Assembly: GCA_963728205.1 (NCBI GenBank)
Contig: CAVSIV010000001.1
Location: forward strand, 1,088,001 to 1,152,000
Origin: an uncultured Chloroflexia bacterium
GTDB taxonomy: Bacteria; Chloroflexota; Dehalococcoidia; UBA2979
Direction: 5' to 3'
DNA length: 64,000 nt
This document shows positions 1 to 14,852 of the stretch, piece by piece. Positions within the stretch are counted from its first letter, which is position 1. Each line of letters starts with the position of its first letter. The notes beneath the pieces are model-generated. The model had not been told where the DNA came from. It did no database searches and worked only from the letters and a program-made list of their open reading frames with translations. Both the position numbers and the translations under genes were made by a program.

Positions 1-5
1 CGATC

Positions 6-455
6 ATGGACGCGCTGCAAGACCTGCCTCCCGATGCGCGCTTCATGCACGCGTACACGAACAGCGCGCACCCGACGGCGTCGGCCGTGGCGCTGCGCAA
101 CCTGCAGATCTTCGAGGACGAGCACCTCGTGGAGAACGCGGGCGCAATGGGCGAGCGGATGGCGTCCGGGCTGCGCAACGCGCTCGGCGGGCACGCACAC
201 GTCACGAACATTCGCAGCCTGGGCCTGATGGCGGGCCTGACGCTCGTGCGCGACGCCGGCTCGGGTGAGGGCTACGACGCGTCGGAGGGCATCGGCGGCA
301 AGGTCGCGCGGCACATGCGCGAGGAGAGTGGCGTCATCACGCGGTTCGTGGGCGACCACATCGTCGTCGCGCCGCCGCTCGTGGTGAACGCGGACGAGGT
401 CGACACGATCGTCGGCGCCATCGATGCCGGGGTGCGCGCGGTCACGGGCGGCTAG
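6..455 (+). CDS. Class III PLP-dependent aminotransferase, C-terminal part (gene begins before window)
   Basis: HAYTNSAHPTASAVAL (H-G-x-T-x-x-G-H-P-like), IRSLGLMAG and IVVAPPLVV motifs typical of the class III aminotransferase C-terminus. Confidence 0.85.
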   Translation: MDALQDLPPDARFMHAYTNSAHPTASAVALRNLQIFEDEHLVENAGAMGERMASGLRNALGGHAHVTNIRSLGLMAGLTLVRDAGSGEGYDASEGIGGKVARHMREESGVITRFVGDHIVVAPPLVVNADEVDTIVGAIDAGVRAVTGG

Positions 456-473
456 CCCCTGAACGTGAGATTC

Positions 474-487
474 GATCAGATCTGATC
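474..487. promoter_or_regulatory. Perfect 14-bp palindrome GATCAGATCTGATC, candidate TF operator
   Basis: Self-complementary, AT-richer than surroundings, 15 bp upstream of a TTGACG -35. Confidence 0.45.
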
Positions 488-502
488 ATCGGCCTGTACG
501 GA

Positions 503-530
503 TTGACGGCTTCCGCGTTCAACCCGTAAT
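503..530 (+). promoter_or_regulatory. sigma70-like promoter (TTGACG-N16-CGTAAT)
   Basis: Near-consensus -35 at 503-508 and weak -10 at 525-530. Confidence 0.45.
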
Positions 531-536
531 GTCGAG

Positions 537-691
537 AGCAGGAAAGGGGGTGATGCCAGTGACTGACGACAGTAGTCACCAAACCATGGGAGTGGACAAA
601 GGCATCTCGAAGGGGGTGCCGTCCAGTTAACGCCCCCTTGGCGTAGTGACACCTGGGCGTCCTCCCTTCGGGGAGGGCGCCCATTCATTTT
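537..691 (+). ncRNA. Candidate structured small RNA or sORF transcript (possible 23-aa ORF 559-630)
   Basis: Bounded by promoter and terminator; extended SD GGAAAGGGGGTGAT; hairpins at 559-579 and 593-625. Confidence 0.5.
654..691 (+). terminator. Intrinsic terminator
   Basis: TGGGCGTCCTCCC-TTCG-GGGAGGGCGCCCA 13-bp stem with UUCG loop, followed by TTCATTTT. Confidence 0.8.
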
Positions 692-752
692 GCCCGACCA
701 CGATGACGCTGCCGCTCGCGCCGATTCCGGTTCGCGAGCACAATCCGACCTC

Positions 753-1542
753 ATGCCGTTCGATCTCGACCGCTACCGCAGCCGCTTCCCGGGCGGGTCC
801 GTGGGCGCCGCTGTGTCGTTTCGCGAGTCGACGGCGTCGACGATGGACGATGCGCGGGCGGGCGCGGACGGCGGCGGCGGCTGCGGCACCGCTTACGTGG
901 CGGGCGAGCAGACCGCAGGCCGCGGCAGACAGGGGCGGTCGTGGGTTTCCGCGGCCGCGGCCGGGCTCTACGTCACGTATCACCTGTGTCCGGCGACGCC
1001 CGAGCGCGCACCGCTGCTGTCGATTGCCGGCGGGGTCGCGGTCGCGGAAGCGATCGAGGCGGCCGCCGGGCTCCGCGTCGACCTGAAGTGGCCGAACGAC
1101 GTGCTGCACGGCGGGCGCAAGCTGGCGGGCATCCTGGCGGAGGCGCGCCACGGCGTGTCGCGGTTCGACGTGCTGCTCGGCATCGGCATCAACCTGCGCA
1201 CGGCGGACGCGCTGCCCGTGGAGGTAGCCGCCATCGCGACGAGCGTGGAGCAGGCGGGCGCGCCTGCGCCGGCCCCCGAGGTGCTGCTCGCGGCGCTGTC
1301 GGGCGCGCTCGGGCGTCGGGCCGCGCAGGCGGAGGCGGAGCCGGCGGCGCTCGTGGCGGAGTGGCGCGCGCGCCTCGTCACGCTGGGGCAGCGCGTGCGC
1401 TTCGAGGCGCCGGCGGGACCCGTGGAGGGCGAGGCGGTGGACGTGACGCCGCGCGGCGAGCTCGGTGCTGCGGCTGCCGGACGGTCGCACGCGGGCGTTC
1501 GCCGCCGGTGACGTGCACACGATCGGCGAACGCCGGGCGTAA
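753..1542 (+). CDS. birA: Biotin--protein ligase (no N-terminal HTH); apparent +1 frameshift near 1464
   Basis: STASTMD, QTAGRGRQGRSW, LKWPNDV, KLAGIL, GIGIN motifs; the C-terminal SH3-like end GEL-VLRLPDGRTRAFAAGDVH continues in a shifted frame to TAA at 1540-1542. Confidence 0.9.
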
Positions 1543-1699
1543 CGCCCGCCGGTCCGCGAGGGCCCGCCGAGTGGGCGCCCCGCGCAAGCCGCCGCGCGCA
1601 AGCCGCTGCGACCGACCGCGAGACGTGCACCCGGTCGCGAGCGCCCGTGGAGCATGCGCGACCCGCGGGCGCTACGCCCGGCGTGCGCCCAGGGGTGGT

Positions 1700-1728
1700 T
1701 TGACCCTGCCGAGGCCGCTGCCTAGGCT
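1700..1728 (+). promoter_or_regulatory. his operon promoter TTGACC-N17-TAGGCT
   Basis: Canonical spacing; -10 of TAnnnT type; 10 nt upstream of the leader ATG. Confidence 0.6.
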
Positions 1729-1738
1729 CGATCTCACG

Positions 1739-1825
1739 ATGAACCGGCCCACCGCCTTCGCCGCCGCGCCCCACGCTCATGTGCATGCGCACTGTGTGCC
1801 GTCGCGCGCCTGCCGGTTCGAGTAG
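1739..1825 (+). CDS. His-rich leader (attenuator) peptide MNRPTAFAAAPHAHVHAHCVPSRACRFE
   Basis: Four alternating His codons; directly upstream of hisZ; followed by a GC hairpin at about 1849-1876 and TCTTCGTCT. Confidence 0.75.
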   Translation: MNRPTAFAAAPHAHVHAHCVPSRACRFE

Positions 1826-1951
1826 CCACACCACTTCGCACCGACATCCGCCGCGACGGCTCGGAGCCTCGCGGCGTCTTCGTCTGTCCGAAACGCCCCG
1901 GGGCGCCTGCGCGCGACAGGTGGCGGGAGCACACGGGGAGGGACACGTACA

Positions 1952-2995
1952 ATGCCCGTCGACGCCGAACCACAGCGAGAGACGAGGGACGCGCCGGTGC
2001 CGGATCGCGGGCTGCGCAGCCGCGGCATGCGGGACCTCGCGCCCGACGAGATGGCGCGCTTCCGTCGCGTCGAGCGCGCGTTCCTCGACACCGCCGGCGC
2101 GCGCGGCTACCGCGAGATCCGCACCCCCGCGATCGAGCCGCTCCACCTCTTCACCGCCGCCGGCGCGCTCTCGCCGCAGGCGCTCGACCGCGTCTACTCC
2201 TTCCTCGACTGGGACGGCTGGAGCGGCGAGCGCGTCGTGCTCAGCCCGGACGCCACCGTCGCCGTCGCGCGCTGGTTCGTGGAGGAGGCGGCGGGCAACG
2301 GGCCGGAGCGCCTCTGCTACGTGCAGCCCGCGTACCGCTTCGCCGACGGCGAGAAGGATCGCGTGGTGTGGCAGTGCGGCGTCGAGCTCTTCGGCCTCGC
2401 CGCGGCCGAGGCCGATGCCGAGCTGCTCGTGCTCGCGCGCGACCTGCTGCAGGCGTTCGGCCTGCGCGAGCTCTCCTGCGACCTCGCGCACGCGGGGCTG
2501 GCGCGCGCGGTCTTCGCCGCCGCCGGCCTCTCGTCGACGGAGCAGCTCGACGCCTACGACCGCATGCTCGACGGCGACGTGACCGTCGCCGAGCAGATCG
2601 CGGCGGCGCGGCCGGAGGGCACCTCCGCGCTGCGGCTGCTCGCCGACGTCGACGGCGCCGCGGCCGGCTACATCGCGAACCTGCGCGCGGCCATGCTCGC
2701 CGTGGTGCCGGGCGCCGCCGGCCCGCTCGACGAGCTGGAGTCGGCCGCGCGCGCGCTCGACGCCGCCGGCGTGCCCTACCGCGTGCTCCCCGGCACGGCG
2801 CGCAACTTCGAGTACTACACGGGCGTGACCTTCCGCATGCGCGCCGGCGACGAGGAATGCGTGACCGGCGGCCGCTACGACGGTCTGGTCGCGACGATCG
2901 GCGGCGACGCCGCGCCGGGCTCCGGCTTCGCCGCCGATCTGCTGCGCCTCGCGCGGCTTGCGCCCGACGTGGCCGTCGACGGCGGCGCGCGATGA
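1952..2995 (+). CDS. hisZ: ATP phosphoribosyltransferase regulatory subunit
   Basis: HisRS-like fold (GYREIRTP, LSPDATVAVAR, QCGVEL, EYYTGVTF, GGRYDGL) lacking the anticodon domain; ATGA overlap with hisG. Confidence 0.9.
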   Translation: MPVDAEPQRETRDAPVPDRGLRSRGMRDLAPDEMARFRRVERAFLDTAGARGYREIRTPAIEPLHLFTAAGALSPQALDRVYSFLDWDGWSGERVVLSPDATVAVARWFVEEAAGNGPERLCYVQPAYRFADGEKDRVVWQCGVELFGLAAAEADAELLVLARDLLQAFGLRELSCDLAHAGLARAVFAAAGLSSTEQLDAYDRMLDGDVTVAEQIAAARPEGTSALRLLADVDGAAAGYIANLRAAMLAVVPGAAGPLDELESAARALDAAGVPYRVLPGTARNFEYYTGVTFRMRAGDEECVTGGRYDGLVATIGGDAAPGSGFAADLLRLARLAPDVAVDGGAR

Positions 2996-4425
2996 GCGCC
3001 GCCGACCCGCGTCCGATCCGCGTCGCGCTGCCGCGCGGCGACCTGCGCGGCCCGCTCGCCGAGCGGCTGCGCGCGGCCGGCTTCGTCGCCGAGGGCTACG
3101 GCGAGGGCTCGCGCACCTATCGCTTCGACGTCGCCGGCCGGCCAGGCGTCGTCGTGCGCGCGTTCTCCGACGCCGACATCCCGATCCAGGTCGCGCTCGG
3201 CCAGTACGACCTCGGCGTCGCGAGCCGCACCTGGATCGACGAGCTGCTCGTGCGCTACCGCCACGACTCGATCGTGCCGCTGCGGCCGCTCGACCTCGGA
3301 GGCGAGCGGCTCGTGCTGGCCGGCGCGCCCGGGGCGCGGATCGACGCGCTCGTCGCGGCGGGGCCGGTGCGCGTCGCGACCGAGTACCCGCACGTCGCGC
3401 AGCACTACCTCAACCGCCTGCGCGTGCCCGACTACCGCCTGTACGAGGTCTGGGCGCAGGCCGAGGCGTGGCCGCCCGACGACGCCGACCTCGCATTGAC
3501 CACCGACGCCGCGGCTGCGCGCGAGGGGCTGGAGCCCGTCGGCGCCGTGCACGCCGGCGGCGTGTGGCTGATCGGCAACCGCGAGGCGCTGGCCACGCGC
3601 GACCTCTCGGCGGCGCTCGAGCCGCTGCTCGCGCTGCCCCGCGGCTCGCTCGAGAGCGGGCTCGTGGAGCCCGCGCCGCTGACCGGCGCGCGCCGCGCGC
3701 CGACCCGCGCGCCGGCCGCGCGCGAGTCCTTCCGCATCGCCGTCCCCGACGGCCACGCGCAGCGCCACACCGTCGCCGCGCTGGCCGCCGCGGGCATCGC
3801 CTTCGCCGGATACGACGAGCAGCGCACGCTGCGCCGCCCCACCTCCGACCGCGAGGGCGTGGAGGTGAAGGTGATCCGTCCGCAGGACATGCCGCGCGCC
3901 GTGGCGCTCGGCCACTTCGACCTCGCGCTCACGGGACGCGACTGGCTGCGCGCGCAGCTCGCCACGTTCCCCTCGGCGCCGGTCGTCGAGCTGTGCGACC
4001 TCGGGCGGTCGAAGTACCGGCTCGGCGCGGTCGTGCCGGAGGATCTGCCGGCGGAGAACATCGGCGAGGCGGTCGCGTACTGGCGGCGCGACGACCCGAC
4101 GCGCGCGATCCGCGTGGCGTCCGAGTACGCCTCGCTTGCCGACGAGTACGCGCGCGCGCGGCACCTCGGCCGCTACCGCGTGATCCCGATCTCGGGGGCA
4201 TCGGAGGGGTTCGTCCCGGAGGACGCCGAGATCCTGATCGAGGGCACGGAAACCGGCACGACGCTGCGTGCCAACCGGCTGCACATGATCGATGTGATCA
4301 TGGAGTCGACGAACTGCGCCATCGGCGCGCCGGTCCGCCCGCCGGGCCGGCGTGGCACACTGCGCGATGAGTTCGTCGAACGCCTGCGGGCGGCCGCGGC
4401 GGTCGCCGAGCGGGTCGAGTCGTAG
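2992..4425 (+). CDS. hisG: ATP phosphoribosyltransferase, tandem duplicated short-form HisG (477 aa)
   Basis: Two HisG repeats: IRVALPRG..DIPIQVALGQYDLGV..RVATEYP, and FRIAVPDG..RPQDMPRAVALGHFDLALTGRD..RVASEY..GASE..TETGTTLRANRL. Confidence 0.88.
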   Translation: MSAADPRPIRVALPRGDLRGPLAERLRAAGFVAEGYGEGSRTYRFDVAGRPGVVVRAFSDADIPIQVALGQYDLGVASRTWIDELLVRYRHDSIVPLRPLDLGGERLVLAGAPGARIDALVAAGPVRVATEYPHVAQHYLNRLRVPDYRLYEVWAQAEAWPPDDADLALTTDAAAAREGLEPVGAVHAGGVWLIGNREALATRDLSAALEPLLALPRGSLESGLVEPAPLTGARRAPTRAPAARESFRIAVPDGHAQRHTVAALAAAGIAFAGYDEQRTLRRPTSDREGVEVKVIRPQDMPRAVALGHFDLALTGRDWLRAQLATFPSAPVVELCDLGRSKYRLGAVVPEDLPAENIGEAVAYWRRDDPTRAIRVASEYASLADEYARARHLGRYRVIPISGASEGFVPEDAEILIEGTETGTTLRANRLHMIDVIMESTNCAIGAPVRPPGRRGTLRDEFVERLRAAAAVAERVES

Positions 4426-14418: not shown

Positions 14419-14852
14419 CGGACGTTCTCGGCGGCCACGGTCGCGTTGGCATCGACACGGCGATCTTCATCTACCGGCTCGAAGGGCACTCGCGCCTGGC
14501 GTCGGTCGCCGGTGAGGCGCTGACGACGATGGAGGCGGGCCGCTTCGAGGGCATCACCTCTTCGTTGACGCTGATGGAGCTCGCGGTGCGTCCGCTCGCG
14601 CTCGGCCGGCCGGATGTCGCCGACGAGTACGACGTGCTGCTCGCGAACTTCCCGCACCTGTTGATGGTCGACGTCGATCGTCGCGTCGCGCGCCGGGCGG
14701 CCGAGCTCCGAGCCGCGCATCGACTGCGCCCCGCAGACGCGCTGCAGGTCGCGGCGTGCATCGACGTCGGAGCGACCGCGTTCCTCACGAACAATCGCGA
14801 CCTCCGGCGGATCGACGAGGTCGAGGTGCTGCTGCTCTCGGCGTACGTCTGA
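14403..14852 (+). CDS. vapC: PIN-domain VapC-type toxin
   Basis: GIDTAIFIY, TLMEL, LRPADALQVA, FLTNN..L PIN motifs. Confidence 0.88.
   Translation: MAEGLADVLGGHGRVGIDTAIFIYRLEGHSRLASVAGEALTTMEAGRFEGITSSLTLMELAVRPLALGRPDVADEYDVLLANFPHLLMVDVDRRVARRAAELRAAHRLRPADALQVAACIDVGATAFLTNNRDLRRIDEVEVLLLSAYV

Follow-up and report, generated by a model that had tools for sequence, protein, structure and literature searches.

What is the short unit that lies ahead of birA, the gene for biotin-protein ligase, in an uncultured Chloroflexia bacterium (Dehalococcoidia, UBA2979), and what might it do for the gene that follows it? The window we analysed is a stretch of 64,000 nucleotides (nt) from this organism (GenBank assembly GCA_963728205.1, contig CAVSIV010000001.1, positions 1,088,001 to 1,152,000 of the forward strand), and all coordinates below refer to it. 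Between the 3′ end of a class III aminotransferase gene and birA, this DNA carries in close succession a promoter, an extended Shine-Dalgarno (SD) sequence, a small open reading frame (ORF) and an intrinsic terminator. The same arrangement recurs ahead of birA in related genomes; its reading frame is kept while the encoded peptide drifts, and part of that frame co-evolves with the 3′ untranslated region (UTR) with which it can pair. We suggest, with a probability that we put at roughly 0.6, that the unit is a cis-acting, translated and self-closing 5′ leader that limits the expression of birA.

A Conserved Unit Ahead of birA

All of the features named in an initial annotation of the window were found, by direct reading of the sequence, where it had placed them, and its description of the region as a self-contained unit running from promoter to terminator is borne out by these features and by their conservation. 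The unit and its neighbour comprise the following.

474..487, plus strand: perfect 14-nt palindrome GATCAGATCTGATC, upstream of the −35 element; candidate operator
503..532, plus strand: promoter, with −35 TTGACG at 503-508, an 18-nt spacer and −10 TAATGT at 527-532
541..554, plus strand: extended SD sequence GGAAAGGGGGTGAT, at, or about 2 nt from, the probable RNA 5′ end
559..579, plus strand: start-codon hairpin (GTGACT/AGTCAC), part of the minimum free energy (MFE) fold; found in the window's clade only and broken in two loci (L011, L013)
559..630, plus strand: leader ORF, GTG start at 559, 23 codons, TAA stop at 628-630; product MTDDSSHQTMGVDKGISKGVPSS
575..590, plus strand: 5′ arm of helix B, within ORF codons 6-11 (GTCAC...CCA.GGG); pairs with 634-650
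593..625, plus strand: inner hairpin P3 (593-597/621-625 and 601-608/613-620), in which GGCATCTC pairs with the second SD-like sequence GGGGTGCC; part of the MFE fold
612..618, plus strand: internal SD-like GGGGGTG (most relatives have GGAGGTG); 15 nt separate the start of its GAG/GGG codon from the stop
631..639, plus strand: post-stop C-run CGCCCCCTT, anti-SD-like; possible partners are the 5′ SD (P1) and the mid-ORF GGG (top of helix B)
634..650, plus strand: 3′ arm of helix B (CCC.TGG...GTGAC)
654..691, plus strand: intrinsic terminator, stem 654-683 with 13 pairs, UUCG loop, T-run to 691; the sole site in the terminator scan
753..1511, plus strand: birA, encoding a catalytic-only (group I) biotin-protein ligase (Pfam BPL_LplA_LipB and BPL_C); presumed target gene

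No named RNA family accounts for the unit, as the initial annotation had supposed. In a scan of window positions 1-3000 against Rfam 15, the best scores over the element were 26.5 bits for SR6_antitoxin (gathering threshold 55) and 18.4 bits for CC2171 (threshold 75), and none of 20 homologous loci gave a match at gathering thresholds. The full-text literature, in a search that covered few subscription journals, yielded no such element and no birA leader. The unit looks like a previously undescribed leader, one of the translated-leader kind with pairing between the 5′ and 3′ parts of the message.

The element is single-copy in its own genome. BLAST (Basic Local Alignment Search Tool) found it in 10 of 40 relatives, among them 9 of 24 from the same family; an exact 18-mer search of one genome from each of 185,579 species returned 48 loci, of which 30 are the element, all 30 in metagenome-assembled genomes titled Dehalococcoidia, Chloroflexi or Chloroflexota; and metagenomes scanned with a 22-nt pattern contributed 79 loci, including 18 complete members and one truncated member. 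With L015/G033 (one of the ten BLAST relatives) and L092 dropped as unrelated, the pooled loci amount to 42 unique sequences. These have in common a single order of parts: TTGAC-N17/18-TAnnnT, the invariant AGGAAAGGGGGTGATGC, two free bases, ATG or GTG, an ORF of 19-23 codons, its stop, an immediate C-run, a GTGAC-like motif and a GC-rich hairpin. The initial annotation had made its account depend on the SD, the hairpins or the ORF being conserved in relatives; the unit is conserved in them, and is in this sense more than a chance arrangement.

Among unique loci with 700 nt or more of downstream sequence, 36 of 38 have birA behind the unit and on its strand, and the link holds where the upstream aminotransferase gene has been displaced (L008, L011). 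A diverged version was recognised upstream of birA in 16 of 20 relatives that BLAST had missed, with an ORF of 19-24 codons (43 in G024), GGAGGTG shortly before the stop, the long helix and a terminator. Both searches summed, the unit is present in 21 of the 24 sampled genomes of the family; among the other three, no match to birA was obtained in G002, and G018 and G021 were outside the set of genomes retrieved. It was also found in 4 of 8 genomes from other families of the class, which were examined first, and in 5 of 26 genomes from other classes of Chloroflexota (G047, G086, G080, G166 and G139). The tally of relatives includes one unpublished genome, G077, whose sequence was not fetched and on which no claim rests, and pattern matches in G100 and G126, which have neither the promoter nor the family features, were judged false. 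An unbiased 13-mer search of five carrier genomes gave 15 matches, and in each genome only the match upstream of birA had a promoter and a small ORF. In two loci (L050, L058) the birA ATG lies about 21 nt after the terminator, which leaves no room for a separate promoter; birA is therefore presumably transcribed through the hairpin there. The tie to birA, which the initial annotation had not recognised, is the main clue to function.

A Strong Start Signal and a Drifting Peptide

Because the organism's own 16S ribosomal RNA gene ends in ...GGATCACCTCCTTTCTA, positions 541-554 can form 14 consecutive pairs with the 16S tail (12 Watson-Crick and two G-U), and the SD is indeed, as first proposed, much longer than a normal one. 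Sites with at least 14 such pairs number only four in both strands of the 4.1-Mb genome, and one of them is the antisense of the 16S gene itself; two of the four lie on contig C3 (24.6 kb) of genome G000, at about position 32 on the minus strand and at 14723 on the plus strand. The sequence AGGAAAGGGGGTGATGC does not vary among the 40 close homologues that were aligned, and the SD of diverged relatives is a perfect (A)GGAGGTGATG.

The extended SD also has a wider occurrence. Among the metagenome loci, the 22-nt pattern AGGAAAGGGGGTGATGCNNRTG is found ahead of small hydrophobic ORFs (MSDMLALVQVLLGVASLIVAIL...; L069, L073, L093/L094, L101/L102), frequently in pairs with a spacing of about 2.3 kb on gut-metagenome contigs, and ahead of short ORFs of the holin-like-toxin type (L066, L119, L122). 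These loci, which fall within the series L064-L142, are unrelated to the birA leader.

Upstream of the SD, the window's promoter was not called by a consensus promoter scan, because its −10 element matches the consensus at only three of six positions. Of 55 distinct homologous upstream regions, 52 bear the pattern TTGACN-N16-19-NANNNT, and in 46 of these 52 the end of the −10 element stands 25-26 nt from the start codon. This spacing would place the transcription start at about 539-541, only a few bases away from the SD's first G. Inverted or direct repeats of the GATCAG/CTGATC type occur just upstream of the −35 element in many relatives (L018, GATCAGGCTCCTGATC; G009, GATCACTTAAGTGATC; also L028, L052 and L010), and 33 of the 55 regions have at least one GATC there. 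The recurrence of these half-sites suggests a putative operator for a dimeric factor; a genome-wide pattern search of the organism's own genome revealed no recognisable regulon for the palindrome.

The leader ORF is 19-24 codons long in 52 distinct homologues, all of which have a start codon (GTG in 30, ATG in 21, TTG in one) and a stop (TAA in 31, TAG in 18, TGA in three). An ATG at 553 is in frame but lies within the SD, and it was discounted as an alternative start because the corresponding codon of G004 and G008 is not in frame. Between the start codon and the internal GGAGG there are 42-57 nt, and each of the 51 distances is divisible by three. In G024 (L148) an insertion of about 60 nt inside the hairpin has been kept in frame, giving a leader ORF of 43 codons that still stops right before the long helix's 3′ arm. 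The internal motif is itself constant: G[AG]GGTG occupies identical alignment columns in 40 of 40 sequences, its GAG codon starts 15 nt before the stop in 48 of 51 ORFs and 12 nt before it in the other three, and the second SD-like GGAGGUG lies 8 or 11 nt ahead of the stop. This placement suggests that the internal SD, at an initiation-like spacing from the last sense codon, may hold the terminating ribosome.

The peptide has no comparable constancy. In 65 same-length pairs of at least 75% identity, pairs that are not independent of one another, substitutions at codon positions 1, 2 and 3 stand at 122:179:113, with no excess at the third position, and single-base codon changes comprise 155 nonsynonymous and 76 synonymous ones; neither count gives any sign of purifying selection on the peptide. 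Residues that do recur (D-D-S-S-H, G-I-S, E-V) coincide with paired or SD-like nucleotide motifs (AGUC, GGAGGUG, GCAUC). Five peptides searched against Pfam and NCBIfam had no match up to an E value of 10, and the peptides are hydrophilic in all cases, lacking the hydrophobic membrane span of a type I toxin or small membrane protein. Since frame and stop are kept while the peptide drifts, we read the leader ORF as one translated for the act rather than for the product; such a pattern would be the signature of an ORF in which translation matters more than the peptide made.

Helices That Co-Evolve

Positions 538-692 are predicted to fold with an MFE of −77.3 kcal/mol (z = −4.94; none of 200 shuffled sequences was as stable), in a structure that includes a helix between 544-552 and 631-639, the 559-579 hairpin and the terminator. 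The sequence AAGGGGGTG occurs twice, at 544-552 and at 610-618, with its single complement at 631-639, and the competing pairing between SD and anti-SD-like sequences that had been proposed for these segments is supported. The 559-579 hairpin, in which the initial annotation had placed the GTG, is not conserved in relatives. In MFE folds of close relatives, a helix between the SD and the post-stop C-run appears in 13 of 16, and the GGAGGUG of the inner hairpin is paired with an anti-SD-like GCAUCUC/GCAUCUY. The duplexes between SD and 3′ UTR range from −13 to −24 kcal/mol, and this pairing is missing in many diverged members.

Duplex searches also found a long interaction between the ORF (codons ~3-13) and the 3′ UTR. 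In diverged members this helix has 15-25 base pairs, made of wholly different sequences, and reaches −32 kcal/mol in G019. The columns of P3 are in register in the alignment of 40 close homologues; helix B and outer P3 are the parts that fall out of register between clades in MAFFT alignments, owing to an extra codon and to differing arm positions, and the consensus that MAFFT and RNAalifold yielded for the complete element was weak. We therefore tested co-evolution without regard to register, by comparing the duplex energies of cognate arms with those of non-cognate arms, the representatives having been picked before any energies were computed. For helix B the cognate arms average −23.4 kcal/mol and the non-cognate −16.5 kcal/mol in 25 representatives (0 of 10,000 permutations at or below the cognate value), and −23.5 versus −14.9 kcal/mol in 29 representatives (0 of 5000). 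The halves of P3 give −15.8 versus −13.2 kcal/mol (0 of 5000), and the terminator arms, which served as a positive control, −27.6 versus −13.0 kcal/mol (0 of 5000). The structures that co-evolve across the family are helix B and the inner hairpin that holds the second SD-like motif.

An Apparently Insulated Terminator

All 41 close homologues whose sequence extends far enough in the 3′ direction have a hairpin of −22 kcal/mol or lower after the stop. A hairpin is present in diverged members as well, with U-tracts that are weak in several. Three pairings that would compete with the terminator are weaker in cognate than in non-cognate combinations (R2:R3, 5000 of 5000 permutations at or below the cognate value; Rm:R3, 4996 of 5000; R1:R4, 4977 of 5000), and the terminator appears to be insulated rather than switchable by RNA structure. 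A pairing of the SD or GAUGC with the terminator 5′ arm, seen in truncated folds of some sequences, was rejected (R0:R3, 3986 of 5000). In the clade of L009, L045 and L082 the terminator hairpin and its tail are tandemly duplicated (GGGGCGTCCC...GACGCCCC twice, about 45 nt apart).

Genes on Either Side

The birA product of the window scores 117.9 bits against TIGR00121, for which the cut-off is 83.1, and a search of the product with curated models found no N-terminal repressor domain. An in-frame TTG for birA exists also at 690. The start codons of birA behind the unit are often without a recognisable SD (window 725-761; L009, L012, L132; for example ...caatccgacctcATG), which is consistent with a very low intrinsic rate of birA translation. 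The upstream aminotransferase was considered as BioA and rejected: it scores 329 bits against TIGR00508, where the cut-off is 405, and it reached no curated BioA cut-off.

Farther along, 1.1 kb downstream of the unit and between birA and hisZ/hisG, lies a separate histidine-rich ORF (window 1739-1825, plus strand; MNRPTAFAAAPHAHVHAHCVPSRACRFE), with an H-x-H-x-H-x-H run and a promoter-like site, TTGACC-N17-TAGGCT, about 35 nt upstream. The 11 relatives checked all have a comparable H-x-H-x-H...PSRA ORF ahead of hisZ. The arrangement looks like a leader-peptide attenuator of the his operon in Dehalococcoidia; in the scan of window positions 1-3000, the Rfam His_leader model had no match there.

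Discussion

The features of the unit suggest to us how a translated, self-closing leader could operate. A sigma-70-type promoter would start the RNA at the 14-nt sequence complementary to the 16S tail, and a small ribosomal subunit could seize this 5′-terminal SD while transcription is still under way and translate the ORF of 19-24 codons, the stop being so placed that the ribosome would finish immediately before helix B's 3′ arm. Of the ORF itself, the first half would pair with the 3′ UTR as helix B and the second half would form the inner hairpin with the second SD; in the window's clade, the post-stop C-run might pair instead with the 5′ SD. An RNA left without a ribosome would then close and hide its own initiation region, making translation self-limiting, as in icaR and hbs. 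The insulated terminator would end most transcripts, and the fraction that reads through would serve as birA mRNA. The leader would in this way limit birA expression, and the 5′ end of the read-through message may be shielded by structure or by a bound ribosome.

A more specific version of this proposal, which we regard as rather unlikely and offer only tentatively, is that the leader gauges ribosome availability directly. Ribosomes would be retained at either end of the hairpin by the 5′ SD clamp and by the second SD ahead of the stop. Occupancy by free 30S subunits or terminating ribosomes, and not an amino acid or a metabolite, would then set both the closure of the RNA and the amount of birA message that is made or survives. 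If this were true, the unit would embody a new leader logic, one without antiterminator or regulatory codons, and would represent the first case of biotin-protein ligase being controlled at the RNA level, with conservation across a phylum.

Several observations weigh against a cis-acting leader of birA, or at least against parts of the scheme. The link to birA has exceptions: L036 has a convergent Mur-ligase gene behind its intact unit, in place of birA, and in L040, the second such locus of the 38, no birA is assigned downstream. L036, which lies on the same 6.9-kb contig as L136, is the sole clear exception, and a rearrangement or assembly artefact is possible there. Beyond the family the unit is patchy, not being found upstream of birA in four of the eight genomes of other families examined first, in any of 14 further genomes of the same class, or in 21 of the 26 from other classes. 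The diverged members, moreover, were found by looking upstream of birA, so that the association is partly built into the search, and the unbiased check covers five genomes only. All 12 of the sequencing runs found to contain window positions 300-1100 are DNA (shares of at most 0.10) and none is RNA.

The structural evidence has its own points of this kind. Sequestration of the SD by the 3′ UTR is clade-specific; the alternative fold of SD and C-run put forward in the initial annotation is a predicted feature of the window's clade and not of the family as a whole. The test for co-evolution of SD and 3′ UTR was not significant (−14.1 versus −13.6 kcal/mol; 847 of 5000 permutations) and is uninformative because the SD barely varies. 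Parts of the leader gave no co-evolution with the ribosome-binding site of birA. No pairing of the terminator arms with SD, ORF or 3′ UTR was found to co-evolve as an antiterminator would, and the terminator 5′ arm pairs less well with its cognate 3′ UTR or ORF than with non-cognate ones. The ORF, for its part, ends more than 20 nt (about 25 nt) before the terminator stem. Lacking an antiterminator, and with its ORF ending at this distance, the unit does not support classical ribosome-mediated attenuation, and regulated read-through appears to have no structural basis as yet.

Some of the same facts would suit a different reading, namely that the unit makes a stand-alone small RNA of about 150 nt, structured and briefly translated, which acts in trans, for example through its C-rich or anti-SD-like segments or by occupying ribosomes, while birA lives on leakage through the terminator and is adjacent for that reason. 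The unit has its own strong promoter, its terminator avoids upstream pairing, an antiterminator was not found, and L036 retains the unit intact in the absence of birA; attenuator-derived leader RNAs and peptides with roles in trans, such as rnTrpL/peTrpL, have also been reported. Yet adjacency to birA in the same orientation across the classes of the phylum is typical of cis leaders and unusual for trans-acting small RNAs, no conserved single-stranded seed was identified, and the most conserved nucleotides are the SD-like motifs. We consider a trans-acting RNA possible but doubtful.

That the ORF encodes a functional micropeptide seems to us quite improbable, and the tightly gated micropeptide of the initial annotation is correspondingly unlikely. 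Such a product, an acidic, Ser/His-rich peptide of 19-24 residues (M-x-D-D-S-S-H ... S-E-V-x-x-x), might be a partner or regulator of BirA or a metal binder, the RNA fold serving only to gate its synthesis. The conservation of ORF, start and stop, the very strong expression signals, the recurrence of D-D/G-S-S/H near the N-terminus and of E-V near the C-terminus, and the frequency of Cys and His near the N-terminus in some members (L014, G166) would all fit. The substitution counts given above, however, are not those of a selected peptide; the recurring residues overlie base-paired or SD-like motifs, where changes of E to G keep the purine run; the middle of the peptide cannot be aligned between clades, and G024 has 43 residues; and the protein-family searches had no match. 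Most improbable, in our judgement, is a riboswitch-like or protein-binding leader, whose RNA would bind a metabolite (for example, one related to biotin) or a protein, with translation of the ORF as read-out or incidental. A conserved position ahead of a vitamin-handling gene, co-evolving helices, an operator-like palindrome and the unexplained sequence constraint on the conserved motifs GUAGUC and GUGAC could be cited for it. But the nucleotides that never vary are SD-like, the RNA lacks conserved internal loops or junctions resembling a ligand pocket, the enclosed region varies in length and sequence (up to the 60-nt insertion in G024), no expression platform competes with the terminator, and the maintenance of the frame would be left without explanation.

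The translated cis leader that we favour can be set beside several known systems. With attenuators of the trp and his type it shares a short ORF, probably translated, that has its own start and is followed by an intrinsic terminator, upstream of a gene on the same strand, and a conserved frame rather than a folded protein. It differs in having no run of codons for one amino acid, no antiterminator, and a stop too far from the terminator stem, and we have rejected the unit as a classical attenuator on these grounds. The STAB-SD of cryIIIA is reportedly an SD-like stabiliser at the 5′ end of an mRNA that is not followed by a start codon. Here too a strongly 16S-complementary sequence lies near the probable transcript 5′ end, where it could hold a ribosome and protect downstream RNA; unlike STAB-SD, it would drive a conserved small ORF, and a terminator separates it from the downstream gene.

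The closest parallels may be two mRNAs whose ends interact. A UCCCCUG motif in the 3′ UTR of icaR of Staphylococcus aureus is reported to pair with the SD, block initiation and create a substrate for RNase III (PMC3868564). The likeness would lie in a C-rich 3′-UTR motif (UCCCCUG in icaR, CGCCCCC/ACCCCC here) complementary to the message's own SD, and in a predicted long-range duplex that would hide the initiation region and yield double-stranded RNA. The icaR message encodes a regulator protein, whereas the unit would be an mRNA of about 150 nt with a drifting ORF of 19-24 codons; its family-wide pairing joins the early ORF to the 3′ UTR, SD pairing is confined to one clade, a terminator and birA follow, and its pairings are predicted ones. 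In hbs of Bacillus subtilis, a strong SD, the initiating ribosome and a 14-bp interaction between 5′ and 3′ UTR are reported to control mRNA decay (PMC5737220). The unit resembles hbs in its very strong SD, where a bound ribosome could shield the 5′ region, and in predicted long-range 5′/3′ pairing within a short mRNA, which may couple stability to initiation. It differs in that hbs encodes an abundant protein behind a long, structured 5′ UTR; the unit would have its SD at the extreme 5′ end of the RNA, has a tiny ORF, and would benefit a downstream gene that is reached by read-through.

The anatomy of this leader is unusual in several respects: a 5′-terminal SD of 14 nt, a frame that is kept while its peptide drifts, a second SD before the stop, a pairing between ORF and 3′ UTR that co-evolves, and a terminator that avoids alternative pairings. 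It may offer a compact natural system in which initiating and terminating ribosomes compete with the long-range folding of an mRNA. To our knowledge, the regulation of birA has been described at the level of DNA (self-repressing BirA, BioQ, BioR) and not through an RNA leader. Since the BirA of these Chloroflexota is without the repressor domain, a conserved RNA-based or translational device would show how the levels of the ligase are set, and the unit adds a candidate family to the RNA databases for a phylum in which hardly any regulatory RNAs have been studied by experiment.

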